In this document: positions 22,270 to 58,465 of the stretch, piece after piece
Position numbering within the stretch: the first letter of the stretch is position 1
Layout of the letters: every line of letters begins with the position of its first letter
NCBI GenBank assembly: GCA_002245135.1
Contig: NGBS01001162.1
Coordinates: 124,001-188,000, forward strand
Direction: 5' to 3'
DNA length: 64,000 bases
DNA from: Proteromonas lacertae
Taxonomy: Eukaryota
Made by a program: the position numbers and the translations under genes
Notes under the pieces: generated by a model
Database searches by the model: none
What the model was told of the DNA's origin: nothing
The model's input: the letters and a program-made list of their open reading frames with translations, nothing else

Positions 22270-25200
22270 CTAATGCTTTGTTAATGTCGCAATTTTGTTC
22301 AACTGCTTATTTGTAGTGAAAGTTCTTGACATATTTCCTGTTGCAAATGACATACTACTTAGTTGATGGGTTGATCTAGATGTAGTAGACACACTAACAC
22401 CTAAGTTTGTGTTATTAGCTATATTAGCAGATCCACTTAATGTATCATTTTTTGCATCTTCATCATAATGTATAACAACTATTTTTATACCATATTCTAA
22501 TATATCAATAATTATCACAGATAAATTAATTCCCATAGATCTTAATAGAAGAACCGAATCAGGATCAGTATTGATATTAAAATCAAGCAAAACCATGATT
22601 GCTCCTAACACTAAAATAACAGAAGATGATATAAATAAACTCAATGTGTCACTATGTTCATTAGCTAAATTTTTAGTTGAATTGGACAATATAAACAATA
22701 TTAATGCTGGTAAAAAATCACTAACTAATTCAATTGCTATGAATGGTGTTGATATTGTACATTCTCTAATTGTAACTTCATTAAAATAGTCACTTTCTGA
22801 TGAACTATATGTTCCAACATACTCATTTGGATCAATTAAAAACCATAATAACAACAAAAGTGTTTGAAACAACATAAATGCTATCCAAAAAACAAATGTT
22901 CTATAAACTGTAATTCTTGTCTTTTTTATTGATCCTTTTATTCTAAATCTCTTCTTGTACAACTTTGTTTCACTTGACATAAGCACTGAAAGTAAACACT
23001 TTACACCAAGACTTAATAACACAACTCTTGCTGTACAAACTCCGTTAGAAGATGAAGGATAAACATACATTGGAATTGATCCAAAAGTAACAACAAATAA
23101 TGATAATACCACACCATAATTATGGGCTCTTCCTAATACTTTAATGATTAATTGCTTTTGATGAATTATAACAAATACTAAACATACAATATTAAGTATC
23201 ATTGCAACTCCAAATAATACATATGCAATACTTAATATTCCTGTATTGTATTTATAAAATATGTTATTCTTTCCAAATTTACATTCTGTTGGTAATCCTG
23301 ATGGATATGGTTCAGCTTCAAACAAATGTTCAGATCCTCTAGTAGGGAAAACTTGAATAAACTTAGCATTTCTATTAATCTCAAATATATAGGAGTTTCT
23401 TGATGAATATAATGATTCTTCTATTTTTATACTTCCTGATGGAGCACTTATTTCTAATCCTACACTTGACAATTGGAAGTATCTTAATGGAGGTATAACA
23501 CTATTCGAATCAGCAGCTGCATTCTGATATACTTCTTGCCAAATCATAAATGAAGTTTTAATAGATTCAAGAGTCTCATCTATTACTTTATTAACGCCAA
23601 CAAAGCCTTCTGTCGTACTAACGAATGATTGAGCTAATGATGTAGAAATAACAGAATCAAATCCAGTCACAACTAAAGAACCATATGCAGATGATAATAT
23701 TTCACTTGTATAATCATTTGAAACATAATTCAATATTGCTACAATTGCTTCACGACTAGTCAATCCATTTGAAGTATATTTGTTAAAGAAATTCTTACTA
23801 ATATCTCCTGATAAGTAATACAATATAGCTACCCTGTCATATTCATCCCTCTTCTGTTGAATTGAACTAATTGCATTATTTAATGAACTTTCAACACTAT
23901 TAGGATTTATAGTAAGTCTAACTAAATTATGTTTATTCTCTTTGTAATGATCTTTCACATAATAATTTACTATTGTGTAATATGAATCGATAATATCTGA
24001 ATCTTCACCTATGAATATTAAACATTTAATTTCTGGTTCAAAATTGTGCAAATAATACTCAATAGACAAAAATCTTTGGGATGCAGTAGATCCAGAAATG
24101 ATATGATTTCCGTTACATGTTCCTCCTTCATTTAAATCGTAAGAAATCCATATTCGATTACTCTTTTTAGATATCTCTTCTGCATTCTTTTTGCATGCTT
24201 CAGATTTACATCCAAAATAAGAAATAACTTCATTATCATTGATATATTTACTTGATAAATTACTAAATTGATCATAAGTAGATGCAAATATAAACTCTGG
24301 TATTAATCTCTGATTATTCAAACCACCATTAGTATTTAGTTCTTGGACTAAAGAATATTCCATTAACATTGAGTTTACTTCAATTTCTTTAGATTCAGTA
24401 TTATCATCATGGAAAAATATCAATTTTAATGCTTCTGGTCTAAATCTATTATTATTATTTTCTTCTAATATTCTATTTTCAGAATCACTTGTAAAGTCGC
24501 ATATATAACCTTCATTTTCAGGGAATAAATGATTCCATGCTTCTGCTTTTTCACTTTGTGATGCATAATCAGCAATTGAAAGTGTTTTATCTTGAGCTAT
24601 TTTCACTAAATACACAATTCTGTTAGTAAAACCATCAGAACTCATTTCTATTGTTCCTGAAGGTGCAACTGTAGTATATCCATACAATGCTTTACCAACT
24701 TTATCATTATCAAATGACATAGTATAAGATATAATAACATTAGCCCACAATCTTACAGATGTATAACCACTTTCCATTGCTGCTGTAATAATACAATTTT
24801 GACCATATCTATCATTCATACTTGTTACAAAGCTTTCAGAACTTGATTTAAAAGTCATTGTGTCTGAAGAAGATAAGCCCATTTCTTTAATGAATGAAGT
24901 AAGGATATAAGCACCATCTAGGCACTTTCCATCAATATAATCCATTAAATATCTATCTAAACTAACAGATACAACATAAGTATTCTTCATATTGATATTA
25001 AATCCACATAACCAATTGAATAGTTTAATGTTATTTTGTTCTGTAACACTAAACAAGACTACTGAATTTTTATCCAACTTCTTAGGATCAAAACCTTCTG
25101 GAACATAATTCTTATTTGATTCAATATCACTTAAATTGTATAAGTGGAAATCTAAATTGATATTATCACATAAAACCTTAACTCCTCTTGCCAATTGTTT

Positions 25201-28200
25201 GCTAAATTCTTCATCATCTTGAAAAACATACACATGATATGTATAAGGTAATATATACTTCCAAACACCGTTTATCAGTTGATTAGAACTTAATTGAGTT
25301 GAAATAGTATATCTTGGACATTCTTCAGTAATAGTCAAACCATTAAAGAAAAACAATTTCTTCTTTTCTTCAAATATTGTATATATATTAAGAGCAATAA
25401 CAGAATTTGCAACTCCAAAAACAACAACAACTTCATCAAGTCTACATAATTCTTCAGCATAAGTCTTATAGAGATCAATATCAGATTTTGCATCTTTAAT
25501 TAATACTGAAATCATTGTACCAATAATACCACCATCTTTATTGATTTCATCAATTGCTTGAATAATTCCTTGGGTAATAGATCTTTCAGTTGTATTATAC
25601 ATGCCACTGTATGATGTTAAAATTCCAATTGTCTTTGATGTCTTTCTATACATTTCTCCATATCCATTTTTAAAATCACAAATATACTTTGCATTATTCA
25701 CCCAATCTTTATAAGGTATTGATTCATATATACTTGCAGATGTAAATATAATATCGAACCCATAATTCTCATCATTTTCTTTCATCTTTCCATATATAAT
25801 ATATTGATTAATATAATTATTAAATCCAATATTCAGATTTCCACCACTTGGTGATGCATAATTTAAATTATAAAACTCATTTCTTAATGCATCTGCTTTC
25901 ATACTCTGCAATTTATTAACTGTGGTTATATAGATATCACTTGATATATATGCAGTATACATAATCTCACTGGCATAATTTGTAACAGATAATATATCAT
26001 CCTTCATTTTAGTATTATGAGTATTATCTAAATTAGTGAAATAAGTCTGAGCTGAATAGAATGATTTTACACCTCTTGCTGCAGCATTTGATGCTGTTGA
26101 TAATGACACTATATTATATTTACCTCTATTTGCTTTATTTACATTTTCTGTTAATAATTTATCTAATAAATAATGTAAACCAGAATCACCATAGTATAAA
26201 ATGTAACAACCATATTCACTGGTAGAAGCAATTAGTGCTTTTACAGCATCTGTAATAATTTTGGTGGAGTCTTTATCATCTGATGATGAAGATGAGGATG
26301 ATGAAGAAGATGAGGATGAGGACGAATGAGATTCTGATAAATCAAGAGTATTGGACGAATAATCAATATTAGCACCAACAAAATCCAAATAACTGTTAAT
26401 ATAACTGTAATACTTTGATCCAACGTCATCATTTGTGGTTAATACACAAAAATGTAACGTTTCTGGTTGTGTAGGTTCCATAATATAATCAATTATTCTT
26501 CCTACAAAACTTGGCTCCTTCAACATATAAAATACATTTTCATAACAAGTTTCTCCTCCTGTATAACCAATTTCGAACAACGGTATATTCTTTTCAACTA
26601 ATAATGGGTTTATACTCTTAAGACATAGAGATGTAGCTGTTGTAAATATCACCCCTTGTTCTACTTGACTTAAATATGCTCTTAATAACTCAATACAAAC
26701 ACTATCACTAGACTGTAGATCATAACTTTGAATAGTAACTCTTTTATTCAATAATCCATTTCCATTATTGTTCAAATCATCAAATAATAATTCAAAGATA
26801 TTCAATACATATAAATCAGTCTCTCTATATTTACCAGAAATTGATAAGCCAACAGCAATTGTAATAGTATCAACTTTCTTTCCAGATCCAACACTAGGAT
26901 CAGTGAAATCACATATTAATCCGTCTGTTTCTTTAATATCCCAACTCCATGCTAATGGTTCTTGAATTCTAGTTTGACTGTAAATAGATTCTAATATACT
27001 TGTTCCATCTTTGTGAACCACTTGCATTATAAAATATGGTAAAGAAATATGATTATTATCAAACATCATTGTTTCACCAGTACAACTATCTATATTTGAT
27101 CTATACAACTGCATTCTTATTAATGTTTTATTGTGATATCCTACTTTTTCAACAGCTTTACTCCAATACATTAATGCTAAATAGGAACTGTGAGCTAATT
27201 CATTTGCATCTAATTTGTCACCATAACTACTTCTAAAAGATTGTCTGAATCCACATTCACTATTAATTTCATCAAAAAAAGAACCACCAAAGAAAAGATT
27301 GATATTTCCAGATAATGATAATGATGCTAATATATTCCTATCACTATTAATAGATATAACAAAAAATTTATTAGTTATTGTATTACCTGATTTAATATGT
27401 GCATCTGTAACTAAACTATCAAAATAATTTATGAAATCTATTGAAGTAGTATCATCTAATGTAAGAATAATAACACATCCTGTTGTTACATACTTTTCAA
27501 CTATTTTACTAGCTAATGAATGAGTTGTTCCACTTCCTGATTCTACTAAATCATTTCCAATAACAGTAAACAATTCAGACAGCGCATTATCCAATATTGT
27601 ATTAATTAAAAAGTTACTGTCAGTATTTGTACCAATGAAGTATAATGAATTATCCACTGATGCTTGGTCAATATAAGTCGATAGTGATTTTGTGTATGTA
27701 CTTGGCAATAACCCTGTATAGAATATATTTTCATCACATTCTTGACCTTCAAATTTAGCAGGATACCATAAATATTTACTATATTTTGTTGATTTAGAAA
27801 AAATTTCATTCACTTTTGTTCTACATATTTTGTTTGTACATCCAACAACAAATATAATATCTTCATCATTCAACACAATATTTGCTATGTTTGTAATATT
27901 ATTCTCATTGGTGGTATCAAATATTATATAATCAAGATATAAGTCATGCAAAGTATTCTCACTATTCAAAGAATCAATTGAAGCAATCATTATATCTACA
28001 GCTCTTAATTCATATTTTTTATTCTCACCTGTAATAGAATACAATAATGCAACTTTCTTATTCTCTCTTTCAAGTAATGAACCTCTTTTTACTTTATCTG
28101 TTTTTGATATTTTCCATTCACAATAATACATTGTATTGTTATTTCCATATTGTGCATTGTATGGGTTAATATGATTAAGATCAGACGATTCTACTAATGA

Positions 28201-31200
28201 TTCTATTGTATAACTCTTATTGTTCGGAAAATAATGAACTTGAACAAGGTCGAGATGTAATGATATTTGATTATTTGAATTAATAACTAAATTATCGATT
28301 ATTTGACTAACATCTGTATGATGAACAGCATTAAGTAAATCTTCAAATGAATATGGAACAAAACCTTCTTCACCTGTATCTTCAGCGAAATTGATTGATA
28401 ATAATGCCTTTGCAGCAAATAATACTGACAATATAGCAGATGCTGATGCTTCTTCTTTAATGAAACTGTATCTATTATCAGCTATTTTATAAATACTATC
28501 ATCTTTAAAATGTTTTCTTTTGTATGTATCTATAAAGTAATGTCCATCAAATAATTCCCAATAAGAATCGTCAATAATATCAGGTAATTTTACATTATAC
28601 GACAGAATTGTATATGTTGAAGAATCATAATTATTCTTTTTTATCTCTAAGAACAAATCAGTAGCTGCAGTTCCTTCCAATAATGAAATAATTATACCAG
28701 ATTTCATACTGCTTATAATAATATTCATAATAATATCCATTTTGTAGTTAGTAATTGGTATTCTTAACACATTTGCTACAGAAATACCTCTTTTTGTTAA
28801 TTCATACTGAACATTCAAAGCATTCTTATAATTCATTTCAGTGTCAGTATACAGCACAAATATATCTCTCATATCTGATCCAGGTAAATAGAAATAAGCT
28901 AATGTTGAAATATATTCCGTAAATGGGGTATTCATATAAATAATATTCTCACTACATTCATAACCTTCATATAAAAATGGATAGAATAAAAGTAATTCAT
29001 TATCAGCTAAATCATCCATAACATATTTTCTCATTTCTGAGTTTGATAAACCAAATATAATTCTATTACCTGTTTCATTTATTGCTTTTCTGACATATTC
29101 TCTTGCTAAATCATTATCTGATTCTATATTTATAACTTCTGTGACAATCATTCTTTTATTAATGCCATGAAAATATTCATTAACATAATCAACAGCTGCT
29201 AAATATCCACTAACCAATGATCTTGAATTGAATGAATAAGTTCCAGTAAATGAAATCAATATATAGAATTTCAATGAAGTATATGTCTCACCTTTTCCTG
29301 TTTCCTTTGAACAGATTTTATATTCGTCTTCATTGAAACCATGTCTAAAACTTTGAGCTGGCCAATTGACTGATATAGTTGAAACTACATCAGTAATTCC
29401 TCCTGGCTTCATTTGTAAAATAGTAACAGGGAATGGTATATTTGTATCACTATCAGACATCTTTGTAACACCAAATGATGATTCTAATTGATAAGTACTT
29501 AAATATTCCATTATTTTTTCATTACTAAAATCTCCTAATTCTTTATATTCTCTAACTAGTAATTCATATGCAATAATTGCTCTTGTTTCAACTTTTGGCA
29601 TTTGATATGATCCACCAAACATATTTACTCCAATATTGTATATATTTGAAGCTGTATATTTGTCAGAATGACAACTGGCTAATGCATATTGCTCTTCAGT
29701 GTAATATTGGTCTATTTCCATGAATGTTTCTTTCGAAAAACTAAAAATTGGGACTTTTTGTGAAGCTTCAGCTGAACTTGTGAATAAATTAGTAAAAGCA
29801 CTTTGATATACTTTGAATAAAGTCAAATAACTTTCTGTAGTGGTTAAATAATTCAAAATAACACCTCCTTCTGGTATATATAGTTTATAAGAAGTCAAAA
29901 AGTCAGAAATATTTTCATTCATTGATGATGGATTTGATTCATTAACAACTAAATGTCTTTTAACAAATCCACCTAAACTTGATATTGTATCTAGAATCAT
30001 GTTATTATCAATATCTGGTAATTCAGTTGATGTAATCAACATGATATTTGGAGAAATATAACTCACAATATAACCAATAAATGCAATAACTCTTTGACTT
30101 GGGAATGTACCAAGATCAACACTATTATAATATAATTAAAAACAAAGAAATATACATTCTTTTATCACAAATATCAGCATTCTTGTTAATTAATGAAATT
30201 AATAATAAATCAGGGTTTTCTTCTAAAAATTCATTCTGTTGTTCAACTGAACAAGTTGTTATAGCAACTGAAGAAGCATTCATTCCATTAAACTCATCAC
30301 AATAATACTTAACCAATATCTATTAGGATTAAAATAATAATAAAAATATATACTATGTTATAATTCATATCATTATAATTAGATAAATACATATCTAACA
30401 AAAGCATTAAAGATTCTTCATTAGTGTTAATAACTAAATTAATTACTAATGGTTCTGAATTATCACTCACTAATGTACAAGCTTCTGTATCTCCGTCATT
30501 TCTCTATAAAAAGAATAGTAAAAAGCAATTATATACATAAGCTAAATAAGCTGAAATTGACATAGGCATGATTGTCTGTAAAATAATAGTATAACCTTCT
30601 CCTTCTTCTAAATCGTTCATTTTTATTAGAACATATGAATTTGACAATACCATATCATCTCTTAATTGTATTTCTCCAACTGGTAAATCAAGAGTAAGTC
30701 CTTTCAACTGTCTTTTAATTTCCTCATATGAATAATCACTAGCTTGCTCATATACTGTTTTTAATATCATCATTGAAGTATATAAATTTAAAATATGTTC
30801 ATTCAATAATTCACTATTATTACCAAATTTTGAAGTAAAATCATTGACAAATATTTCATTCTGTTGATTGGATCTACTATCTCTTGTATAGGATGTAAAC
30901 ATCAAATGTCCATTCCATATTTCTTTATCATCAACCCATTCTATCATTGTATCAAGACTAATGACAGTATAAACAGCAGGATCCATATCCTTATCTCTCA
31001 TTAATCTCAGCATAACATTTATATCTTCCCCTAACACTGTAAATATCATCATTCTTGTTGTTTGAATTTCTTTTAGTGTATCTGTAGCATTATCTAAAGA
31101 ATATGTTGAATTGAGATATATTGTTATATAATCAATCTCTCTGAATGTATCAATAGTAAGTGCAATTGCCTTACCAACATCATGACAGAATTGGTTATCA

Positions 31201-34140
31201 CACATAACAATTGCTGCTTTCTTTTCTGGACAATATTGCCATATTGTAGCTATTGAAGCAAATGCATAATGATTAGGAACTCTTCCTACTTGAATGATAT
31301 TTGAATAACATCTTTGACCTTCACCTGGATGAAAGCTGAATAATATTTTCTTCTTCTCTACTAAAACATCAGCAAGAGCATCTCTTTCTGGATTGCTTGT
31401 AGTTCCAAAATAAGCTAATAAATCTTCATCATCACTATTCTCTTCAACGTATTTCTTCATTTCATCGATTGTGTTAAATATTTTTAAAATTGCTTTCAAC
31501 AATTTGTTATTTATTCCGTCTTTCATATTCATATAATCTGACATTATACTTGAGTATAATTTATAATTGTTCATATAACGTTCTACTTGAGCATTAGTGA
31601 TATATAAGAAAACAATCTTATAATATGGTCTATTAACAGTCACACCATCAATCCAAGAACATTGTATACTAGTATCAGTAAATGCATTAGTTGATATAAC
31701 ATAAGATGATGATAATATAACTTCCACACTTTCTGTATCATTATGAATCTTTCCAATATGTAATTGAGCTGAAAGTGTTCCTTGACTATTCCATTCTACA
31801 TTACCACCAGGTCCTGGAATACTAGAAGCATAGACAATCATTTGGTTGATTGTATCTCTATCATCATTTCTTGCTAAGTTGACAGCATTCGCTAATAACA
31901 TCATACTTACATAACTAGTAGCCATAGAAGATGAATAATGTTTGATTGTTACATCGCTAAGCTCATTGATTCTTTCCTTAAATTCATTACTGTCTGTTGT
32001 ATTCAAATCCTCAAAATAATAGCCAATAACATAAGATCCATCATACTATAAAAAAAACAATACATAAACATAATATATATATATATATATATATACATTT
32101 GTCCATCCATTATCAGTATTATCCATTACTTCTTCATCTAAAGTAAATGAAATAACTGGATGATTCACATTATCATGGACAATTTCATTGTACATACTGA
32201 AAAACACTTGTAAATAATCTCTTTCTAATACATTAGCCACTAAACAACCATCTGTGCATCTTGAATTTATAGCTGCGCATACATTCAATGCTTGTTCTCT
32301 ACTTCCATCTTTCATTACTTCATATATTACAGTATTGAAGCCACCATATTCATTAGTAATATTCTTTAACGATGCAGTTGCCGCTTGTGAATACATACCT
32401 TTACTTGACACTACGAATAATGTCTTAAATGTAACTATATTAGTGAATTCCTGTACAACAAATTTCCACATTGAATATACACTTATTCCTTATAATTATT
32501 AAAGAAAATAATAAATTTAATAGCATTAAAAAAAGATATAGGAATAACATTCTTCTTACAGAAATTACTTCCATCAGGTTGAAGAGATATATAAGTATAT
32601 GAAGTAATGTTATGACCATCAATTTCACTTAAGAACTTAATTGTATCTTCAATCGAAGATGTACTAAATGAAGTTATTATATTGTAGACCTTTCTATAAT
32701 CAGTATACTCCTTATATAACTGTTCACTACTTGCAGATATATCCATGTAAATTGGTACTATTTGTTTATTTAATACCGGTTTCTATTAATTGAATATTAT
32801 AAATTATATAATATATCATACTTCAGCATTTAAATAATTAATTGCAGCTTCAAATGCGTGTATAATATTCTCATCATATCTTGACAAGTTTCTAATTGTT
32901 ATATCTTCATGGTAAAAGTTTCTGTATGTAAATAACAATACATATAATGCATCAGGTTTGTACAATGAATCAGATACTAATTGATTGCAAATGTATTCCC
33001 TTGGAAAACCATTTGTAATTGTATATGATACTTCTAATGACAATTGAATAGGTTTATTATCTACTATTTTATCATTCGTTGAATCTACTTTTGCCAAATC
33101 AACAATTGTTGCAATTCTATTACCAGGAGTTAAACCTACTTTCATTTCCTCATCACCACTTTTATATATTGTAATATACTCATCATTATTATATCCAAAG
33201 TACACTATATCACTTCCACTTTTGAAATTACCTTTTAAATATTCATTACCAATTGTTATATATAATTTGTACATTGAAAATAATATAACTGATTCTATAT
33301 TTAAGTCTTTGTTTGTTAATGCTGTACCACTTCCACCGATTTCAGTAAGTAAAGTTGGAGGTATTTGTGCATTTTCACTGAGTATATATGAGTCATCACT
33401 GCTAGCACTATGATAGACAACTTCTCTTGGAACAACTGGCATGTTGACCAATTGGACTTTTTTACCTGTTGGAAATGTTCCAGCTTTCCATTCATCAATT
33501 AAATCTGTGGTACTATAAAAATTGAGTATGTAAACTTCAGATATGTTTGACGTTTGTAAATAAGTGGTAAGTGAAGTAATGATTTCATTTGCTTTATCTG
33601 CTTTTTTATCTACCTCAGTAACTGAAACACGAGCGAAATTAAATAGTTTTATTGTTTCAGTAATGAATGTTCCTAATTTATCCTTCTCATCTGAATCATA
33701 AGCTACACAGACGTTTTCAAATCGATTGATTTCTTTGGATATAGTATATAAACTTGATGAAACTGTATCATAACCAAAAATAATGTTAGAATAACAAATT
33801 GGACTTGTATAAGGTATAATATTCCAAATATAAATATCATATGCAACAGCTACTTCGTTTATCATATTATAATCAGCAGATTTGAAGTAAGGCAAACACA
33901 GTATCGATATAATTTTTCTTAAACTTTTCAAATTCTGAAATTAATGAAGTATTTGTTATTTCCATCTATTTTTATCTTTTTTAGAGTATATTCGGTCGTT
34001 GTAAAGTAAGTGATTATTGAATCAACACCTGTTGGTAAAGTTTCTCCAGTAGAATATACAAAAGGTCGCTCTAATATAATGCATAGTACATTATCGCAAT
34101 AAAAAGCTAATACTAAGAAAAACAAATTAGAAAACGGCAT
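22270..34140 (-). CDS. Receptor A: ~3875 aa class C GPCR-like protein; signal peptide + 9 tandem UrtA/AmiC-type periplasmic-binding (Venus flytrap) domains + 7TM
   Basis: Introns 32783-32821, 32490-32539 (AT-AA), 32046-32096, 30504-30536, 30320-30353 and 30122-30155 join six listed ORFs. The junction with the first (signal peptide) ORF near 33930 is unresolved. Repeats carry UrtA-like motifs (IGILTSYSG..TERS, AIDEINKDGGIIG, LLFYPFLYEGYECSENI, WYPAKFEGQECDENIFYTG). Seven hydrophobic segments lie at ~23240-22480, including a CTARVVLLSLG TM3. Confidence 0.85.
26278..26325 (-). repeat. TCN trinucleotide tract encoding a poly-Ser insertion in VFT domain 7 of receptor A
   Basis: GATGATGAAGATGAGGATGATGAAGAAGATGAGGATGAGGACGA on the + strand; protein reads SHSSSSSSSSSSSSSSDD. 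Confidence 0.8.
32490..32539 (-). other. U12-type (minor spliceosome) intron, AT-AA termini, in receptor A
   Basis: 5' ATATCTTTT, branch-like TTCTTTAAT 8 nt before the 3' end ...TATAA|GGA. Removal gives CKKNVIP|GISVYSMW in frame. The paralog has a phase-0 intron at the equivalent position. Confidence 0.75.
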
Positions 34141-35459: not shown

Positions 35460-35574
35460 TATATTAAAAAGTATAATGTTATTTATTGTTTTAAAGTTGT
35501 TGTTTTTTTGATTTTATGAAGAATGAAAAATAAATTATTCTAAAATTCTTTTTATAAATAAATTAGATTATCAA

Positions 35575-36390: not shown

Positions 36391-36573
36391 TATGATAAAT
36401 TTTATATAAATTCAATGATTGAATAAAACAAAAATTTGAATTTCAGTTTTTAAAAAATCAAACTTTTCATCAAACTAATTTTAACGAATATATTTTTATT
36501 ATAATTTTTCATCAACAAACAATTCATACGATAATAAACACATTACTAAATATAATAATAATACTATCAATCG

Positions 36574-38936: not shown

Positions 38937-39101
38937 GAAAAAAAGGATTAAAGAAGAAGAAGGCTCGAGAGTGAATCCAAACTTGTATATTACAACACAC
39001 TGAATATTTACTTCCACACCTTATTAATGTAATATTTATATAAATAACACATCATTAATACAAATAAATTACAAATAAAAAGAATAACTACAAAATTTTG
39101 T

Positions 39102-39477: not shown

Positions 39478-39631
39478 TATTGATGTGAAACCTTTATATA
39501 TAACTATCAACGAAAATTATTATATGTACAAACCTGTATTTTATTGGTAAATTCAGTTTATAAAAAAAAATGTTTGACTCGAAAAAAACAGTCATTTCAT
39601 ACTAACAATAACAATAAAATTAAATATTATT

Positions 39632-42168: not shown

Positions 42169-42507
42169 AGCTGAGTACTAGTTTACTATTAGTTTTATAA
42201 ATTACTCTCTTATTAAATTATATGAAAGAAAATGATATTTTTGTACACACTCTGAAAACTGCATATAGAAGGATTTATTTAGAAATAATAATATTATTTT
42301 ATGTACCTATACAAATCAACTACCATTTTCTTTTAAATAGAGGATGATACATGAATGTGTATAAATTCATCTCACCTAAAACACCTTTATTTTATCTTCT
42401 AATGTGTTAAGTGTATAAAATATAATATGTCAAACCCCTTTTCTAACTCATTTAACACATACAGAATAATTACATTAAAAAATAGTTGTATTAAATATAA
42501 TTACATT

Positions 42508-43817: not shown

Positions 43818-43934
43818 TACTAAAAAAAGAGTTGTTAGAAATTATTTTTGAAAATTCAAATTTAAAAACAAAAAATCTCATAATATACTCAACATTATTT
43901 GTAAATAACTAATATATATCGTTTTATTGCTTAT

Positions 43935-45386
43935 TTACAACTCATCATAAGGCATATTATTCAGCAATTTGTCAATCCTAAAGAATTCCTTTTCAAGTAT
44001 TTTCCCAATCACTGGTAATGAATAATATTCAATCATATCTTGCCTTGCTCTTTTGCCAAGCATAACTCCTATATCTGGATTATTATACAAATATTTCATT
44101 TTTAACCCAAGTGTAGTTACATTTGGTTCACACCATCTATGATTCTTCCAAGGACCTTCCGTAATCTTAGCTAAATACATACAATCTATCAATAAAGAGT
44201 TATTCTCATTCATAAATGCTGTATTACCACTCCAATTTGTAGCTATTACAGGTAAAGACATACTCATTGCTTCCACATGAGGTCTACCCCAACCTTCTCC
44301 TCTAGATGGCTGAATTAAACAATTCACAGTTTTATAATAACTTAATAATTCATCATCTGATAATTCTGATAATATTTCATATTTTGGTAAATTCTTCTTT
44401 TTATAACCATTTACATCAATCCAATTACTTATTTCATTATTAAAATCTGAAGTTGAATGATATGCATTGGTCAAAATATACAATATTACTTATAAATATT
44501 AAAGATATATATATGTAACAAGTAATTTCTTAAAAGGATATTTTGTCTGTTTTACTAAATGTATTAAAATATGCTTTTAATAACACATCCCATCCTTTTC
44601 TCACTTCCCATTTAAAAACTGAAAAAAACTTATAACTAATCAACATAATTAAATTATAAATATACTCATTGTTATGTAGATTAATTGGTTTTATTACATC
44701 TGCGTTATATAAATCAGTATCAATTCCTTCAGGTATAATTCTTATTTTTTTCTTTTCAACTCCATATTTTTTAAATATTTCATAATGAAACACAGTTGGA
44801 ACCCATAGTTCATCCATTTTATTTAATTTTTTCTCCCATCCATCAGGTAATCTATCAGTTTCGAACATTGTTCTCCCTATTTTATATTTTGATTCTATAA
44901 TTAGAAAATTATTAATATATATCACTATTACTCTGCACAGGACAAGGTGAAGTGTCATATTGGGCTGGAATCCATGCTCCTGGTTCACTGTGACATACCA
45001 TTATTGTGTCTTTTGGATTATTTCTTGTTTTTTCTAATTTGCTTAAGTAATTATAAATCTACAACATTACTAATTATAATAAAATAATACTTCTGTTTTC
45101 ATTGATGCAACATATTGATAGTTATAAGAATCACCATGCTACTATTATAACAAATGGAAATACATACTTGATCAATTTTTAAACTAATGTTTGAATGTTT
45201 TAGAGATAGTGCATAATATGTAGCTTCACTACAATATCCTCCACCACTAAAAAAAGGAGCCATCCACGTAACCTAAAACAATTATCATATATCAAATACC
45301 TTTATTAATTTTCTTCCTTCTATTATACGTATACATAGAATAATTAAAATTATCACATGTTTAAGAAAAAAATATAATTCAAACAT
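43935..45386 (-). CDS. Glycosyltransferase family 4 (GT-B, glycosyl transferase group 1) with N-terminal signal/anchor
   Basis: VTWMAPFFSGGGYCSEA, CHSEPGAW, IGRTMFETDRLPDGW, FSVFKWEVRKGWDVLLKAY, QPSRGEGWGRPHVEAMSMSLPVIATNWSG (EX7E). Ends in YDEL. Confidence 0.88.
44490..44541 (-). other. U12-type intron with AT-AA termini in the GT4 gene
   Basis: Consensus U12 donor ATATCCTTT, branch-like TCTTTAAT 8 nt before ...TATAA|GTA. Removal gives SKTDK|VILYILTNAYH in frame. Confidence 0.85.
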
Positions 45387-45423
45387 GTTTGTGATTGTTG
45401 TTTAAATCTTCAATTTTCTCTCG

Positions 45424-46706
45424 ATGCAGCAAGTATAATTGTTATAAATAAATTTAAATATAAAATACAAATTATTTATTAATAGATAAACTTTAACTTA
45501 ACAGAATCTGTAAAAGTATAAGTAAATTTCAATATATGCTTATTTTGAATAGTCGATATTGAATGATATAATATCAGAAGCGAATTTATTATACGTTTCG
45601 CATGTTGTTGATATAAATCTACAGAAAAAGCCAGTAGAGAGATTGACTGATATGGATATAAAGCAAGCATATCATGTATTGATATTGTATATGATAGTTA
45701 ATATAGATTTTAAACAAAATTTCAAGGATAGCTGATGATAAACATAAAGATGATGTTTTGAAATTAAACCTACTCTATAATAGCTTTATTCCATCTTATA
45801 AAGAAAAGCAGAAATTACAGGAGCGACAAATTTTAACTCCACAGGATTTAAAAGTGAGATTAACATTTTTGTATGTAATATCAGAAATGAGAATTCAAAA
45901 ATTGTTACTGAATAAATGTTTAAAAGATGAAAGAAAAATATCAAAAGAAGAGAAGTACTATGAAATATTAGGTTGTAATATTGAAGAAATACCAAAGGAT
46001 GGAGAAGACTATAAAAGAATTGATAAATACATAACTCAAAACTCAGGTAAAACATATGACACAAAAATCACTTTACAAAAATGTTATTTGGTAGATAATC
46101 CAGAATTAGTATTTCTATATTTCTATATTTAATATTATTATAGAGTAAGAAATTCAAAAAAGAGATAGGAAATATAACTTTGTTATCATATGGATCACAT
46201 ATTACAACATATGCTTCAATATTGAAATATGGCTTAAAAGTTCCATCTAAAGATGCACCAATTGGTTCATTTTATATGCACGGTAAAGGAATAGAATTAT
46301 CAGATTGTATATCTAAAAGTGGAGGCTTTACTTATGCACAATATTCACAGAATCAAGCAATTATTTTACTGTGTGAAGTTGCGTTAGGTAAAAGGAATGA
46401 TATTTATATTCCTGATTTCTATGGGGATCAATTACCTGATGGATATAATTGCAGCGTTGGGATGGGATTATATCAACCACAAGGTGTTGAAACATATCAT
46501 AGTGAAGATAATGAGTATGAAGTGAAAGTACCTGTTGGACCATTTGTGGAACAACCTAATTTTAATGGATTTTTGAAATATAATGAAATGATAATGTATT
46601 TATTGTCATTCATAGATATATTTATTATAGATTCGATGCAAATCAAGTTAAATTTAAATATTTGCTAAAAGTAAAGATTGAAAAGAAAAGAATTAACAGT
46701 AATTAG
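45424..46706 (+). CDS. Short PARP-like protein (regulatory + catalytic domain only) with a degenerate NAD-binding signature
   Basis: Five GT-AG introns. INLQKKPVERLTDMDIKQAYHVL (PARP_reg), LLSYGSHITTYASILKYGLKV, YMHGKGIELSDCISKS, ILLCEVALG, LKYNEMIIFDANQVKFKYLLKV. Confidence 0.85.
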
Positions 46707-47139
46707 TATTCAACAGCATTTTGTAAAATTGGGTTTTGTGTTTTTTGGTAATTGTGTTTTATCATTTTTGATTGAAATATGATGATGATTGTCGTTTTGT
46801 TTATTGCTTCTTGCATACTTGCTCTGTTTATTAAGAAGTAATTATATTATAATGTTTGTTTGGAGATATATCTTGAGGGTTTATGGGATTAGTCAATCTA
46901 TTTTACTTTGGACTTACTTAAATGAAGGATGAGGCAATTATTCATTAGTGTTGTGGGTGTGGGTATGGGATGATCTAAGGAATATATGTAGTAAAGAAAT
47001 TGATTATAGAATATTATAGTAAAAAATGAAAATATAACAGTTATTATGCTATTATTTGTTTAATTCATTTCTATTTCAATGCAACAACAAAGCAATTCAA
47101 CAATACAGTTATAAAAGCTTGATTCAACGCTTGAGCAGA

Positions 47140-50100
47140 ATGAATCAGTTTTGTATTTTTTTCACATTCACATTATTTATTTTTCCTATTTATTCTAGTA
47201 ATGTATGTCATTTACCAAATTATATAGTGCAAACTGCTCAAAATTATTCAAAATATCTTCAATTACCATATAATGTGGTATGTGACGATAGTAGATTGAA
47301 CATATCAGATCGTTTTGTTATTAGTTATAATGAAGATGTTAATTATGAAAAATTAAGTCCAAATATAAGCTATTTCATAGTTACTAAATCGCTAATGTTT
47401 AATTGTAGTGAGAATATATTCCATGTTCACATGAAGCTTAGATCAATTTCAAAAGTTGTAGAGTATTTTATTCGCAATGGTTATAAAAAAGTAATTCTAC
47501 TGTCAGATAGTAAGAATGAAGTAGAAATTAAAAATATTGTGGATATATTTACATATTATGGAGGTAACGTAGATTTAATAGACGATAAATTCAATGAATC
47601 TAGGTTAAATGACACGCTAAGTAGTTGTACATCTTATAAAGATGTTATAATATTTAATTTCTTTATGGATGCTAGAAATCTATCTAAGTCATTATTATAT
47701 TATCAGCAATATAAAAGTCTCTATCCTGTCTATTTTGTAACATTTTATGTTGATGAATTATATATATTCGTTGATCCTGAGTTAGTTAATGACACACATA
47801 TACTATCAGGATATCTTCATCATTATGATAATGATGAAAAAAGATCATTTTTAGAGAAATTTGATCTGGATAGTATAAAAGACTTTGATGATTTATTATT
47901 TCAAGTGTATTTATTCATTTTTCTTATTTTTACTAGGATAATTGTATTAGAATTCCTGAAATTTATTCCACAATCATTTCCAAAGGATAATCCATTTTTA
48001 ATAAGAAGACAATTAATTGATAAATCAATCAAAATTGCAGGTCAAACCATTTATTTTTCTCCATGCAATTCATTCATAAGGAATATTTATCTTGGTGATG
48101 TAAATTCAACAGGACAAATGACTAATGTTGTAGAATTTCAAACGAATGTGCCAAATTATAGAGATTTATTAGATTTAAGAGAAAGATGTCCATATATAGA
48201 AGAAGCACATTCAATTACTTTTGGCTTTTTATCTACACTAACAGATGTGCTTCATTATAATTTTTTGGTCGGAATTAATGCAGCGATTGATGATATAAAT
48301 AGATATGAATCTTCGATGAAAAGTCATATTATTTTAAGATTACCTCCAAGTATAGATGCAGATATTAATGAAGCATATAATTATCTTAAATCATTTAATC
48401 CAGTTATTTTGTTTTATTTTATTGATAATGATAATACTACTGATATAATGAGATGTATATATATATATATATATTTAATTTCTATTAATATTTTAAATAG
48501 TAATAAATGATGATGAAGATTCTCCTCTATTTTTTACTTATGGTTTCTTTTCTGGTAAAATATGTAATCCTAAATTCTTTTATGTATATTTATTTTCTAT
48601 TTTTTTATTTAATATTAGTTGGGATTATCACAAGATGTTAGATTCAGGTATATACAATATCTAAGTAATTCAGATTCAATATTTACAGTTACTACTACAA
48701 CAAAGTATATTAATATAAATTATTTTTTTTCTATATTTTATTATTCTGATTAATAGATATGGTAAAGCAATGACTAAAATTGCACATGATAATATCTATG
48801 TAAAAGAAAATATTAACATTATTCAATATACATGCGATTCTGCTTTTAGACTTGATGTTCAATCAATGTTCAATTTTATGAGTACATTTTTAAAACCAGA
48901 AACTGTAATTTATATTATAATTGAATCATGTAATTTTCAAAATTTGGTTTTAGAATTTCTACCACAATATATAACGACGAATAATAAAGTGAATTTCATT
49001 AATTTTAATCCTGATTGTGGAATATATAAATCATATGGCGTATATATATATATATATATATATATATTATGTTTTTCTATATATATTTATAATAGTGGGG
49101 AAATTATTATTTATCTGATCCATTTATTGATATCTCAAAGACAACTACATTATATAAAATCAATAAACTAATCCTTCCAAATGGTGGTATTTCATCAACT
49201 CTATATACTGGTTATTATGGTGTTTATATATATTACAATGCATTAATGTCAGCAGGAGTATCTGATTTATCAACCTTATTACCAATAATAAGTGAGACAA
49301 AAATAAAATATGATAATCATGAATTATTCATTTCTGATGATCATTATTTCTCTTCATGTTTACAGTATGGAAAAATAGATGAAAATGGTGAGGTGGAATT
49401 ACTAGACAAATCTCCTTTTTCATATGTTTCACATGCTTATTATCAAATGCAAAATATGGATTATATTAAAACATGCAATTGGAATATAAATAATAAAAAT
49501 GATGAATATACTTCATCTTTAACTAATTTTGGAATTTTAATTGTTGATAATAACTATTTTCTTGCAGATTTTGCTCAAGCATTTATCAATGAGATTGCAG
49601 TTACAAAAACCTATGATTCTCTTGTTTTTAATGTTCATTATTATAATAATATGAATACATCATTAGAAAATTTTTTACCAATGATAAAGTACTTTCATGA
49701 TACAAGAAAAATAAGATGTGTAATTCTAAATGAAGAGTTTAATCCTATAGATTTTGGTACTTCTGATCTTTCATTCATTATTATTTCTTCTTATGATGAA
49801 AATCTATGTGATGATAGAGTATTCTATTTTGGCTATTCCAGAAATGAAATTTTGAGAAGTTCAATCGCAAGTGCATTTGAAAATCAGATTGACAATTTCC
49901 TTTATATTACAAAAATCTCATCTGGTGAAGTTGATGCAACTGATCAATATTTTAGACATTTATTAAATGGTTTGTATTATTATGATATAAATTATACTGT
50001 CATATATTATACTGAATCAGAAAAGATCAAAGATTATATTACTAATGCAATAAAACCTACATTTATGTTTATTGGATTAACAGTTGAAGAAGATTTCCTA

Positions 50101-53100
50101 TTAACAAAATATTTAATAGAAGAAGTTGATTATGATTCAAATTTAATATCAATTGTTCATTCGAATAATCTGTATGTGTATTATAAAGAAAATTTGCCTA
50201 TAAAGAATCATTTTTTCCCAATTCATCAAATTCAGTTACATCAATCAGATATTGGATCAATAATAGAACCGTATATTAAAACAGTCCCAATTGATTTTTA
50301 TGCATTATATATTTCATTGTATTATATTTTAAATACTGTTTCTGACTCACATTATGAATATTCTTCTGATTATATTAGACAATTATCAAAAGCAAATTAT
50401 AGAATAATTGAAAATGGAGTTGGATCATACATATCAAATCACCAATTTAATTCACCTTTTTCATTTGCTAAAGTAATTAGTAAAGATAATATTTTCTTTA
50501 CTTATTTCCCATCAGAATATGTACCAAGCACATTTACTCTTAAAAGTTATGATATAGTGGGAAATAATCAACTTCAGAAATGTGATTTAGATTCAGGATT
50601 AACATATATAAATGTTACTGTTGTATATTTAGGAATAATTAGATCATCAAGTGATTTATCTCAAGGATTTTCACAAACAATGAGATTAGTAATTGATATA
50701 TACATTGATTCATTTCAAAGTAAAACAAAGAATTTGTATTTCAAACAAATAATTGAAGATGTTGATAAGACTACTGATCCAGAAACCGTATTAAAGAAGT
50801 TTCATGATTTACACATAACAAATGTATTTGGGTTATTTTATTACAGTTTATTGCAGAAATATATTCCTTATCTAAATAAATACAATATGATTGCATGGTA
50901 TACAAGTGGAATACCAGGCCCAAGTTTTTCTAATGATTATGTTGTTTCATTTTATATTCCTCTTACTTATGTTAGTTTAATTGAGAAAGAATCAGATTAT
51001 GCACTTCTTATATATTCAGATAGATTATATTTCAATGAATACATTGATGAAATTCTAAATTCGTTATATGATTATAAAAAAGTGAAAGTATTACCTTATA
51101 AATCAAATCGATCTGATATTAAATACGTTGATCATTTTATAGATGAAGTGATATTAGAGATGTTGGAGAATGAAAATGATATATATTTATTTCTAAGAGC
51201 TGATGATTTTAATGAAATAATACCACAGTTAGTAAGGACATTTAAAGCATCAGAATCATTAGAAAAATGGTCAATAACATCATTTATTGATTTTCCAATA
51301 TTAAAACAAGATGATGAAGAGTTTAATGGTATTAAATTCTTAACTGCTGTAGATTTTGCTCACCAAACAAATATAAATAATAATATAATAAATATATTTA
51401 AATCATATAATCTGAATAGTATTAGTCCAACAGATGTTGAACAGTATATGTATATTGCTTTATCAGCCTATGTAGCATTAGTTCAAAAAACAGACTATAA
51501 TAACGTATCATTAATTCAAGAAATGATAAGAAAGAAGAATGAATTTAATGACACTTCAGTTTTTGAATTTGCGCTAGTTGAACCATCTTTAATAAAGAGA
51601 ATAAATAAATATGAATATAAAACATTGCTCTATTTTAGTTGTGTGCCAAATTTATTAGAGAATAAAGATACAATGCAGCATTATCAATGTCCTAATGATC
51701 ATACGGTTATAGATTACAAATTAAATTATACAATAGCTGTTATATATGATAGAAAAATAAAATCAGATTATTTTATCATCACTATCGCACATATATTTCA
51801 ATCAATTGCAGGTTCATATATTAATGACAGGTTTATATCAGTAATGGAGATTAACTCTGATGAAGATGATTTGTATTTATCAGAAATTGAAAACAAAATT
51901 GACATTATTGAATTAATAATATGTGCTACTGGGAGTAGAATAAGAGATAAAATCGATGAAAAAATACTTAGAGTATACAAGAAAGTAATGTATTATATAT
52001 ATGATGATAAAGGATGCAATTGTTCTCCTTATATCTTTTATTTTGGTATGTCAACTCAAGGAAAAGTAAGAAGTGAAATTAATTATATCTCTGAGAATTG
52101 TAAAGCCATAACAATGATTTATGATAATTCAAAACATTCAGAAGAAGAGCTTGAATCATTCAAGGAAGAATTGAAATATTATAATATTCAATATGGAAAT
52201 ATATATAAAGTTCTTGATGAAGATTCTGATTTTACTGATTTTATTAGGATAGTGACATATAGTATATCAATTAATGAATGCATTTTAAATTTTCTGGATG
52301 ATTATAACACCGAAAATATAATTAAAGTATTCAATAATTATTCTTCATTAACATCTGATATGAAATTAATAAGTCTTAGTTTGAAGTTTAATGCATTTAA
52401 ATTTCCATCATCTAATGTAGATCATATAATTATTAATTATTTCAATCCCATTAATCCGTTGCCTATTTATAACAATATATTAGAATCTATAGAGAATCTG
52501 TATGGTATAAAATTACAGTTACAACAATATATTTATAATACAGTAAATGCAGTTAGTTTCTGGAAATTAATAATGAAGAAAACCAAAAGTAAGTTTCATT
52601 CAACCAATGGTTTTCTATTGGCTCACTACAAACAAATATTTAATAATGGAAAATATGATTTTAAAATACAAGAAAACCATCATATGTCTCATTCAAGACA
52701 TGTTATATATCAAAAATATAAGGATAATAAGCCAAAAGTAATATTTGAAAGTGTTGGTACTTATGAAACATATGTTTATTCTATTGATGATTCTAAAATG
52801 TGTTTATTAATTGATGATGTATTTAATGAATATTATACACCTAAAAGACTTGTTACAATTGGTTTTGTAATTCCATCTAGTACTAATAGTTACCAAAATA
52901 TATATCCAAATATTGTGACTGGTTTAGTTTCATATTTTGTTATGACAGAAAAAATCTACAAATTAATTGGAAGAGAAGATGTAAGATTTAAATATGTGAT
53001 ATATAGAGTAAATGATGATAATGAAAATGAATGTATAAAAGCAATTCAAAATTCTATAGATGAAGAAGTTGATTTTATTGTTGCACCAGTTATTTCTTCT

Positions 53101-56100
53101 TGTGTAGAATCAATGGTAAACTATTTGAATAAATCTTCAATAATTATATTTGCAACAGATTACTTAATGGGTACTACATGTAACAGTAAATTTGTCTACA
53201 CATCCAAAGTTCCAAATCAAATCATTAATCCAACTTTTGGTTATTTTACAGAATTTCTTGCTTCTACTAAATACTGTCATTTGATATATAATCATAACAA
53301 AGTATCAAGAGAAATTTTAGATGAAATTATTGCTTATTCAATTTCTCAACAAGGAAATGGTTATAGTGTGTATAAGTTTACAAAAGTATCCGCAGAAACA
53401 TATTCGATATTATTAAATATTTTTAAGCATCCAGGTCTTATAATGACATTTCTTGATTCAGTTGATTTGGGTTATTTTTTATCTGAATTAAGTCATTATA
53501 GTTTGGATAAAAATAAATGGAAGATTTTCTCTCTTCTTGTCAATCATGAATCATTAATATATAATATTCCATCAAAATATTTAGATAATGTTTATATTTC
53601 ATCATTAGTAGTTGATGAATCAAAATCGAAACCAATTCTAGATTATTATTTCTTAACAGATCATCAACCTATTTATTCCGGTTCTACAGAAGTTGCATTT
53701 GAATTTATATATGAGATGATTATCCATAATGAAACATTAAAAGATTTATATGGTAAAGTATTCCACAATGAGATAGTTGGTGATTTTCAATTAGATGAAT
53801 CAAATAGTATAAGGTATCCTCTATTATTGGCATATTATAATAACGGTGTCAGAGAAATTGTATTTCCATCTTCCTATCTATTCAAGCCAAATCCTCTTTT
53901 ATTCTCATTGAAACAAGAACAATGTGACTTTTCAATATCCAATGAAATTACTCCAGTGAAAATACAAAAAGTTCATTTAGGATTGGTTTATCAAAAACAA
54001 TCTGATTTGATAATATCATCATTACTTGCTCAAGTATTGAATTTTATGGCATTTAGTATATATATATATATATTGTTATTTATTTCTTATAATAGACATA
54101 AAACAAGGAGTTCAATATTTTGCTGGTATTGTATATTTAACAACAGATATAGAAATTAGAGACTTTATACAACAATATATAGATGATGATTCATTAAATC
54201 CATGTATTCTATTAACACATCCTCAGTTTAAAACAGAAATATTAGATTTAATAAGAAAGACTGATAAAATGTTTTATATTACCAACTTTAGAAATGAATA
54301 TTGTTTAAAGAACTTGATAGCAACAGAAGCTAATACATTGTTTTCACTTAACAAAGTGATTCAATTGATACCTTATGCAATATATGAAGTTGACTATTAT
54401 TTATTCTATGATGCTAAATTGAAAGATTTATATGATCAAATAAATGCTCTTTTAGCTGAAAATGGTTATAAAGCAATATTTTCAAGATCAATAGAAGATT
54501 ATGATGAAGATGTATTATTAGATAATTTGGAATTCAGTGATAGAAGTGCTGTTGTATTCTGTGATTCAAGTGATGAAATTTGTGAGATGATTAATAACTT
54601 AATGCAGTCTGAGCTTGGAGATGGAGTTGTATTTTTCATACAATGGTTTTACGAATCTCCTACTTATGTTGATTCATTATACCATCTTATGTATGGTTCA
54701 GCTTATCCATCTGATACAGAATTTACAAGTTATACAACTTTGAAGTATTATACTGAAAAGAATAATAAATCCTCACTGTTTGATTATTATTCATTGAATA
54801 AAATATATGATTTATTGAAGGTAATATATATGTGGATGGAAATCGAAAAATTAGATGATTCAAAAGAATTTTCAGAACTTTATTTAAAGGAAATAGAAAC
54901 TGAAGTTGGTCCAATCAAATTAAATCCAAACAATCGAATAAGTTCTCATATGATATTATATTTTCACTACATTGATATGTTGTTAGAATTCAAATTATCT
55001 AATTTTGTAGAATTGAGACAATTCGATAAAGATTTTGCAGAAAAAGATACTGCTCTTCATTGCAACTGGAAAGATGGAAATGGTTTGAAAGAAAAAAAGA
55101 AAATGGTGGTAGCAATAATACATGAAAAGAAGTATTATGAATCAAAAACTTCATCTCTATATGTAATGTTAAGAGTTTTAAAAGAATCTCAATATTACGA
55201 AGAAGGATTGTTTGAAAAATACAGTATAGAAGCATCAATAAAATTCTGTATGAAATGGAAACCAAATTGTATGCAGAATATTTTGGATGAGTTATTTAGT
55301 AAGGATTTTTTAATAGCAATATTTGATTTTACTACAAATTCTCTTGAAGATTATCAAGAAATGATTGATTCAAAGAATGTATTATATTTTGATTTAGGTT
55401 ATTTGATAAACTCCTATTGTTCAGATAGAATATTTGAAATTGGTTTAAGTGTTGTTTCACTTGTTAGATATACCCTGTTAGATTGTATTGAAACAATAAA
55501 AATAGCAATTATAATCCATAGTAAAGATGAATTTGGATATTCATATATTAACGCATTTGAAGAAGAAACTAAAGGATTTATGATTAAAATGATTCCTATG
55601 GCTGTTTCAGATTTGTTTGATATAATAGAACTATTTCCAATATGCTTGAAAATACCTAATCAGTGTGTAATTATTTCAACAGCTTACATAGAAAATCTAT
55701 CTCTATTATTTTTATTGCTATCTGCTAGTAAAATAAGTCTTGAGAATGATATATTGTTTTATTATTACTTTTATTCAGATACAATTAATCAAGATTTTAG
55801 TAATAGTTTTACAGGAGCAAAATATATTTCCAGTTTTAATCCATCAGTCAATTTTTATGATTATAAAGGAAATGATCCAATGATATATGATTTTAAAGAA
55901 TATATAAAAGAATCATTCTGTGGTGTAGTTGAAGCAACTCCATCACTTGAAGGTGTGATAGTTGGATATGAAATTCTAAAGAAACTGTTATTATCATCTG
56001 AAGATGTTAATTTTGATTTAGTATTATCAAAAGCACATAATTTGTATTTTGATACACCAGCTGGTCCTGTATATTTTGGTACTAGTAGTTTCTTAATGAT

Positions 56101-58465
56101 AGATGTGATGTTTTCTAAAATAACTAATCAGTATAAAATAGAATACCAAGATTCAAGAAAAGCAGTAAATCCAATTTATTGGAACAATACTTGTTCTACT
56201 TTAATAAAGCCAATAATAGTTGGAGTTATATTCGATTTCTCTAATACTTCGTATTTATCATCACAAGTGTATTTTTCGTTAGTAAAAGAATTAATTGTAA
56301 ATCAAAATAGAATTGGAGGGATAAATGATAGACAAATTGTACCAATACTATATCCATTATATCACAATGAGAATGATACTGTAACAATTGAAGATTTGGT
56401 GAGTAATGAGAATATATCTATCATTTTAGGATGTGTTACACATTACTGTAATTATAAGATATTACCTTATTTATCATCTTCTGATAAATTGTTATTTTCA
56501 CATTTATTCTATCCAGTATCTTATGGCCAACCAAATGTAATTACGATTGGGTTGTCGGTTGAAAGAAGATTAAAAACAGCCAAAACATATTTAGATTCTA
56601 CTACATTTAAGGCATATGTGTTAATATATCATACATCTTTGAATGATCCAGATGATATATCCTATTTCAAAGAAAATGGTATTTCATTTGAAAAAGTATT
56701 TCAAATTACTCATGATAATTATACTGAAGATATTGATAAAGCATTGAATTATTTGGAAATTGAAACTAATAAAAGAGAAATAGCTTTGTTTAATTTATTA
56801 GGTGAATCATTGTTATTACAATTTGAAGAGTCATTTATACAAAGAACTATAAAAAACAACAATTTCATTCAAATCATTTTCAATTTAAATGAATATTTAT
56901 TAGGTTTTGATCTATTATCAAAAATATCTGGATCAATAGTAGTAACTACTTTTACTGAAAATTCAAATAGTCATTTAGCTACATTATTTGAAGAAATGAT
57001 AAAAACAAGATTTGGTTCAATTCGAATAACTCAAGGAATGGCTTTATTCGATGTATCAATAAAAATGTTAGTAGCAACTTATAGACAGGCAGAAAAACTA
57101 CTTACTGAAGATGGTATAGTATATGATGAAATGAATGAAGATTATATTTTTCCATTTGAATATTTAAGAAGAGCAGCTCAGATGTCCAGTTTTGAATGTA
57201 GTTGTGGAACAGTGGCAGTAACTACAAGTAATGAAGTGATTTATGGATATGAGGTTGGATATATTTCTCCAAATGGCAATATTATTTCTGTAAAGACAGA
57301 TGTTAGAGAGTTTATATTACCAAACAGAAATAGTAAAGATTGTTACTTTGGTCCTAAGATAAGAATTTATGAATTACCTGTTACTGTTACAATTCCTACA
57401 ATTGTTATAACGGCATTAATTCTAATTATGTCAGCAGTAGTGTTTGTGGTTGTGATTAAGTATAGAAAGAAACTAAAAGCTTGTAGTCCATTTTTTATCT
57501 GTTTTTATATTATATCTGCTTGTATTTCAATTCTTTTAGAAGTATTATATAACAAAATAAATGATTCTGAAATAGGATGTGAAATAGTAGTGGTATTATT
57601 GTTTATATCAATAATCAACTGTGTATCAGTTATTGTGTTTAAAACCTGGAGAATTCATGCAATTTATAATAATGTAGGAATAAAGAAAACTAAAATAACT
57701 GATATGATAGTATTATCGAAGATTAGTTATATACTAATACCTGATGCTTTAATTTGTGTAGTATTTGGATTATTTAATACTTTAGGATCAATTCAATCAA
57801 ATAAATCAATAGAAATGAGTACAACAATAGAATATGTAATATTTCAAAAATGTCAAATTAACATATACTTTTTAGTTTTTCAAATAGTCATGTTTCTATT
57901 AATAGCCTCATTGGGATTATATTATTCTTGGGGAACAAGAAAGACAAGTAAAGAATATAATGATTCTCAAGCAATGGCTATATCTCTTGGTTTACTTACT
58001 TTCTTAATTGTAGTTACAGTGATATTAGAAACAAGTCTAGATTTTGAATTGGATATAAAGTATATATTTGAAATAATTGGATCATCAGCAGTGTTATTTG
58101 TTGTATTAATGGTGTTATTTGTTCCAAAATTCTATTTGATAGTAATAAAGAAAAAAGTATTAACAATATCTACTGAAGAAAGTATTAAAAAATCAGTTAA
58201 AGCTGATATACAACCACAAATAGTGGATGGAGCGTTTCTAGTTGATTATTCTAAAGTTACACGTACATATGGCACTAAGACAGTAATATATCCTCAGCAT
58301 ACAACAATGAATACAAGATTAGGAGCAATGATTCCTGGTGCTTATGCAAGAAAGAAAGCTTTGGAAGTTGTGAAATCTTATGATCATGATGATTTTGATG
58401 GAGAAGGCGAAGTGAAAAGAAGTAGTGATGACAGTGATAGTGAAGAGAATGAAGGAAAAAAATAG
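47140..58465 (+). CDS. Receptor B: ~3688 aa class C GPCR; signal peptide + 9 tandem divergent periplasmic-binding (Venus flytrap) domains + 7TM
   Basis: GT-AG introns 47907-47936, 48455-48500, 48584-48618, 48705-48756, 49040-49095 and 54056-54095 give one 11067 nt frame. The 7TM (~57380-58150) has class C motifs LKACSPFF, FKTWRIHAIY, TRKTSKEYNDSQAMA and LFVPKFYLI. Repeats include QNRIGGINDRQIVP, LGCVTHYC and TPAGPV. Confidence 0.88.

Follow-up and report, generated by a model that had tools for sequence, protein, structure and literature searches.

Two giant receptor genes and their surroundings

The DNA that we analysed (the window) is a 64,000-nucleotide stretch of the Proteromonas lacertae genome (assembly GCA_002245135.1, contig NGBS01001162.1, positions 124,001 to 188,000), with ~27% GC and short introns of the form GTAT...TAG. 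It harbours two genes, hereafter called A and B, that code for very large G-protein-coupled receptors (GPCRs) of class C. Their features are collected in Table 1. Gene B is interrupted by six GT-AG introns and codes for a canonical seven-helix (7TM) domain. In gene A, the donor and branch pattern of the likely U12-type AT-AA intron agrees with that of a second such intron at 44541, in a glycosyltransferase gene. U12-type signals were found at 44541, 41516 and 32539 of the reverse strand, two of the introns being apparently AT-AA and one AT-AC.

Table 1. Positions of the receptor genes and of their features in the window
Feature	Position	Strand	Remarks
Gene A, class C GPCR	22270..34140	-	~3,870 aa; signal peptide, nine domains of UrtA/AmiC type, non-canonical conserved 7TM, short Ser/Thr tail
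Gene A, GT-AG introns (n=5)	32821-32783, 32096-32046, 30536-30504, 30353-30320, 30155-30122	-	
Gene A, likely U12-type AT-AA intron	32490..32539	-	in domain 2; donor and branch pattern
Gene A exon 1, frame offsets of one base (n=2)	33880..33965	-	relative to orthologue
A ectodomain, domains 1-9	23272..34074	-	
A domains 1, 2, 3	34074-32978, 32977-31650, 31649-30468	-	
A domains 4, 5, 6	30467-29302, 29301-28111, 28110-26902	-	
A domain 5, sole position with invariant pocket residues	28111..29301	-	S122, Y141 and E146 equivalents, 7/7 A-clade rows
A domains 7, 8, 9	26901-25669, 25668-24490, 24489-23272	-	
A 7TM	22468..23244	-	S at 3.50, K at 3.53, mid-TM3 Lys, Asp 6.35, without Pro 7.50
Gene B, class C GPCR	47140..58465	+	3,688 aa; open frame, signal peptide, nine diverged UrtA-type domains, 98-aa tail
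B ectodomain, domains 1-9	47206..57352	+	least diverged: 9 (membrane-proximal), 5 and 6
B 7TM	57377..58138	+	KTWRIH, EYNDS, FVPKF; best solved match GABA-B2

The frame of gene A is broken in exon 1 as assembled. The orthologue P0181 spans this exon in one frame and matches frames -1, -2 and -3 successively in tblastn comparisons. No GT-AG intron fits the break, and a 29-base non-canonical intron was ruled out because the orthologue matches the bases that it would skip. The two offsets do not compensate each other, and the frame as assembled stops after 71 residues. Gene A might therefore be a recent pseudogene, with no A protein made in this organism, but this is very unlikely: the other 11.6 kb are open, with one frame of 2,621 codons, and the A branch is 0.30 long versus 0.29 for the orthologue. 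Since the rest of the gene is open and its branch is not long, an assembly error is the likelier cause of the offsets than a null allele. Both of them fall in short base runs, as would be typical of such errors. On the other strand, a frame of 1,676 codons without Pfam match (17129-22159, +) ends ~110 bases from the stop of gene A.

A distance of 13 kb separates genes A and B, and about seven genes unrelated to them occupy it. Among those at 36574-46850, one codes for a PTEN/tensin-like phosphatase-C2 protein, another for a GT4 glycosyltransferase and a third for a PARP catalytic domain, and an enkurin-domain gene (PF13864) is found at 35575-36411 (-). The window also harbours a gene for a giant protein of >5,000 residues with He_PIG, PA14 and HRM repeats (1-15037, -), which runs past the window start. 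Together with the enkurin gene, this protein would point to a stramenopile close to Blastocystis and Proteromonas. Metagenome scans with an alignment of A and with the PTEN-like gene yielded no confirmed relative. Table S5 of PMC12129017 attributes 7 G-alpha, 116 class C GPCR, 2 enkurin and 75-84 RGS-domain entries to Proteromonas lacertae, and no entry for G-alpha, class C GPCRs or enkurin to any of the 8 Blastocystis isolates.

A family of nine-domain class C receptors

Both proteins match the Pfam 7tm_3 signature and tandem Peripla_BP_5 domains. The 7tm_3 scores are 65.7 bits for A (E-value 6.8e-18) and 79.9 bits for B (3.1e-22), for a curated cut-off of 33.5, and both proteins have seven helices and the TM3-ECL2 cysteines of class C. 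Their ectodomains consist of nine repeats of 320-410 residues, each closed by a linker Cys, and TM1 starts within ~15 residues of the last one, with no cysteine-rich domain. The gene models thus bear out two features of A and B reported in an earlier sequence-only reading of the locus, the nine domains and the missing cysteine-rich domain. The flytraps are nine PF13433 domains per protein rather than a single ANF_receptor domain, and no match to the latter (PF01094) was found in the nine window frames scanned. The tails of A (58 residues) and B (98 residues) show no C-terminal coiled coil or heptad run, and a simple scan detected no RxRR ER-retention motif in them.

An AlphaFold2 model of A domain 9 with the 7TM, built from 29 sequences, has a pLDDT of 89 (43.5 with 6 sequences). 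It predicts seven helices and, matching the account of the GABA-B stalk in PMC8163086, a linker strand together with an ECL2 hairpin. The best Foldseek matches of this model are GABA-B and mGlu chains (E ~1e-22), with a TM score of ~0.4 and an rmsd of ~25 A that we read as a different orientation of the domains in the model.

Several conserved elements were found in the ectodomains. The junction of A domains 1 and 2 (32822-33025, -) is ultraconserved: of its 68 residues, P0181 shares 66 and P0182 shares 57, for an overall identity of ~60%; this sequence conservation may reflect a distal binding surface. In the membrane-proximal domains, the pocket loop is overlain by a GCxxxxC pair in clades A and C (see below) and in B of the window (23272-24489, -, and 56204-57352, +), and a P-x-x-Y motif is common to A, B and their orthologues.

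We collected 2,529 proteins with a five-sequence profile (E 0.001). The 150 matches listed include many tandem UrtA and 7TM proteins of 2,000-3,745 residues. Of 20 clusters looked up, 16 are nameless and two carry informative names, Capsaspora and Phlyctochytrium; Capsaspora CAOG_05347 and Phlyctochytrium KAJ3101170.1 have UrtA-like domains. A search of the Atlas with B returned generic class C clusters. For the phylogeny, we built two quick trees with SH-aLRT values as sole support. The first comprised 76 7TM segments, after the removal of 15 near-duplicates and of rows not spanning TM1-TM4. It contains a 36-row group (support 98) made up of clades A (12 rows), B (13) and C (10) and one unplaced row. 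The second, with 44 rows of domain 9 plus 7TM, gave the same clades, with support over the two trees of 93-95 for A, 99-100 for B and 80-91 for C, and joined A with C (93). Clade C members have a canonical TM3 and UrtA-like domains, and they are nearer A than B is. Nine domains are also present in P0021 and P0092, and at least eight in three B-clade fragments. A and B are old paralogues in a large family of giant nine-domain class C GPCRs.

Contrasting conservation of the transmembrane and binding domains

The sequence-only reading contrasted six short 7TM motifs, all of which are present: SSETKLY (22977), ANEHSDT (22665) and EYGIKI (22497) in A (-), and FKTWRI (57638), KEYNDS (57950) and FVPKF (58118) in B (+). 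Aligned from the TM3 cysteine, SETKLY of A lies opposite KTWRIH of B, and A has no K3.50 but a Lys at 3.53. Of the coupling residues K3.50/R3.53, D/E6.35 and FxPK, B has them all and A only the 6.35 acid and the Lys at 3.53. Contrary to what had been proposed, ANEHSDT is not a loss relative to KEYNDS, because A retains the Glu and the Asp at 6.35, and its orthologue P0001 has EFHDT. At the clade level, [KR]xxR in TM3 is found in 0/12 A-clade rows, 12/13 of clade B, 9/10 of clade C and 37/40 outside rows. With truncated rows dropped, the respective proportions are 2/7, 13/13, 1/6 and 32/40 for Pro 7.50, and 7/9, 12/13, 9/9 and 36/40 for the 6.35 acid.

In GABA-B2 (GB2), the substitutions S515A and R577A abolish signalling, and changes of K574 impair or abolish it, as described in PMC8222003. 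The equivalents of S515, R577 and K574 are L, K and S in A, whose ICL1 was placed by eye, and C, R and K in B. A thus differs at all three positions, which supports poor canonical coupling. However, K or R occupies 3.50 in 8 of the 12 A-clade rows and 3.53 is basic in 10, the ICL3 motif retains its F in most of the clade, and A exceeds B in the basicity of ICL2. The basic 3.50 and 3.53, the 6.35 acid and the basicity of ICL2 make altered coupling as possible as lost coupling. A mid-TM3 Lys is conserved in 6/12 rows of the clade.

The 7TM of A had been called degenerate, a description that its conservation contradicts. Its identity to P0001 is 63.6%, within or above the 50-65% of the ectodomains, and reaches 96% in the TM6-ECL3-TM7 bin versus 52-60% in TM1-TM4. 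ETKL recurs in both orthologue groups. Given this strong constraint, the recurrent ETKL and the retained TM6 acid, a decaying 7TM was ruled out.

We scored the ectodomains against a profile built from 35 UrtA domains of bacterial type, which came from our own search and are hence not wholly independent. The mean score per domain is 84 bits for A and 21 bits for B of the window. It ranges from 84 to 125 in six A-clade proteins and from 14 to 50 in 12 B-clade proteins, with no overlap; five C-clade proteins score 69-114, the unplaced row 40 and P0021 349. The A/B contrast counts as a single evolutionary comparison, not as 18 independent ones. The claim that B shows the reverse pattern of A holds across two whole clades, with the TM3 motif in 0/12 versus 12/13 rows and UrtA scores of 84-125 versus 14-50 bits.

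Similarity to UrtA does not extend to the binding pocket. The UrtA pocket comprises eight positions, and S122, Q144, Y190 and N246 (plus W120) contact urea, according to PMC10392092. A matches 12 of the 72 pocket positions, B 5 and P0021 55, and at most one of the four urea hydrogen-bonding residues is present in any A or B domain. Of the earlier statement that A has the best-conserved UrtA-like binding motifs, the greater overall likeness to UrtA thus stands, but the pocket residues do not follow. Binding of urea by A in the manner of UrtA was rejected, with at most 1/4 contact residues per domain. Between A and P0001, 22 of 40 pocket columns are conserved (0.55, versus 0.59 elsewhere). The pocket conservation in A domain 5, four domains away from the membrane, has p = 0.017 as one of 18 groups and is not significant after correction. 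B domain 5 matches 3/8 pocket residues, and 0 of the 7 B-clade positions examined has invariant pocket columns. As a conserved candidate pocket is found only in A domain 5, the proposal that A binds the ligand rests on one site.

Partner subunits or independent receptors

We favour the view, with a probability of about 0.45, that A is a non-coupling partner subunit of some canonical paralogue, of B- or C-type and not necessarily its neighbour B. B keeps the G-protein-coupling residues and would be a signalling subunit. A, with its conserved but altered 7TM, would couple poorly or otherwise, by analogy to the GB2 mutants. It would dimerise with a coupling-competent paralogue, as dimerisation is general for class C receptors, probably through TM6-TM7, a face whose strong constraint in A fits a partner subunit. 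The active GABA-B interface is TM6-TM6 (PMC8163086, PMC8222003). Domain 5 of A might sense a small ligand, amide-like or otherwise polar, and urea is predicted not to be bound as by UrtA. P0021, a single chain in which intact pockets go together with a canonical 7TM, speaks against the partner-subunit view.

Alternatively, A and B may be independent receptors, each a homodimer or a monomer, which we consider a real if lesser possibility. A would then signal alone, either by coupling to G proteins in an altered way or via a different effector, much as RGS7 is recruited by GPR158, and B would have drifted to new ligands or surface binding. The basic 3.53, the 6.35 acid, the basic ICL2 and the ICL3 F kept in most of the clade speak for this alternative, and the mid-TM3 Lys points to an intramembrane chemistry proper to A. 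The paralogues are numerous, a low UrtA score reflects distance from bacteria rather than lost binding, and the RGS-domain and class C entries of Proteromonas lacertae in PMC12129017 provide a lead only. On the other hand, whole clades diverge in complementary fashion, and no B position has a conserved pocket. GPR158 and GPR179 resemble A in having a class C 7TM able to act via a non-G-protein effector, but as described in PMC8611064 they have no flytrap, retain K3.50 and LxPK and possess a cytoplasmic coiled coil, which A lacks.

A narrower form of the partner-subunit reading holds that the two genes of the window are linked because their products pair obligately as a 9:9 heterodimer in register; this form is improbable. 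The genes are neighbours in one genome region, each has an 8-member orthologue cluster (of records without accessions), and their local trees have similar shapes. Register between the clade profiles is detectable (p ~0.001, mainly from domains 9, 8 and 6), but in the pairwise comparison A domains are not significantly closest to B domains of the same rank (p = 0.10). The A-C register is far stronger, with a residual of 64 versus 15-25, and A groups with C, not B; P0021 is out of register. A register common to the clades points to duplication after the array had been assembled. The number of domains (nine also in P0021 and P0092), the register and the absent cysteine-rich domain, all put forward as signs of pairing, are family traits, and the roughly seven unrelated genes that separate A from B weaken the case from linkage. 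Both tails are devoid of coiled coils. Scores of 0.04 and 0.02 (mark 0.34) from a complex prediction for A domain 9 with B domain 9, run without alignments, count neither for nor against the pair. Divided labour as in GABA-B nevertheless is a reasonable hypothesis, given the clade-wide contrast and the replacement in A of residues critical in GB2; its attribution to this exact pair is unsupported.

A broader form is that giant class C receptors, assembled by a protist lineage from nine bacterial urea/amide domains, split, independently of animals, into obligate sensing A-type and coupling B-type subunits, in convergence on a heterodimer of the GABA-B style. This is rather unlikely. It would involve a relay along a very long ectodomain, with P0021 as a surviving single-chain counterpart whose urea-type pockets are intact.

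A and B share with GABA-B receptors the class C 7TM, the lack of a cysteine-rich domain and, in the model, a predicted beta-stalk of linker and ECL2. The 7TM of B is nearest GB2 among solved chains (E ~1e-7), and A and B are paralogues with complementary conservation. However, in place of one ANF-type flytrap they have nine domains of UrtA/AmiC type, their tails lack a coiled coil and their many paralogues fall into three clades. GB1 retains the lock and FxPKxY motifs (PMC8163086), whereas A has lost K3.50 and FxPK, making A unlike GB1 in sequence and the analogy functional at best; this tells against the GABA-B1-like role first assigned to A. The type and number of flytraps and the tails without coiled coil or RxRR rule out A and B as GABA-B proper. 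The absent cysteine-rich domain and the stalk are not diagnostic of GABA-B, being common to the whole family and to the fungal receptors described in PMC5168858.

Unicellular eukaryotes are already known to have class C receptors whose binding domains are of bacterial type (PMC5168858, PMC12965686). Like those of gut fungi, Capsaspora, Phlyctochytrium and Proteromonas, A and B combine a bacterial-type domain with 7tm_3 and have no nine-cysteine domain. The gut-fungal receptors of PMC5168858 have type II or pectin-lyase domains and up to 1,600 residues, whereas the ectodomains of A and B are type I arrays of ~3,300-3,500 residues, in a family split into coupling and altered clades. With UrtA/AmiC (PF13433; PDB 8HIC, 7S6E, 1PEA), each A and B repeat shares the fold, the YP..EG.EC motif and the closing Cys, but A and B carry the domain nine times, fused to a 7TM, with at most 1/4 urea residues.

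A literature search, mostly outside subscription papers, found no class C receptor with multiple UrtA domains in tandem and no protist heterodimer. To our knowledge, the known class C receptors have one flytrap per chain. The Proteromonas genome paper may cover part of the nine-domain family. With an array of nine domains one can test whether the distal ones signal at all, and in what way. If true, a split between coupling and ectodomain conservation across clades would mean that divided labour in the GABA-B style arose independently, and would show whether dimers of class C are prone to it.

P0021 (3,745 residues, from Logan) harbours its nine UrtA domains and canonical 7TM in one chain and lies outside clades A-C. 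All eight pocket residues are present in five of its nine domains. Its sequence predicts a eukaryotic multi-site urea/amide GPCR, a prediction that is directly testable.
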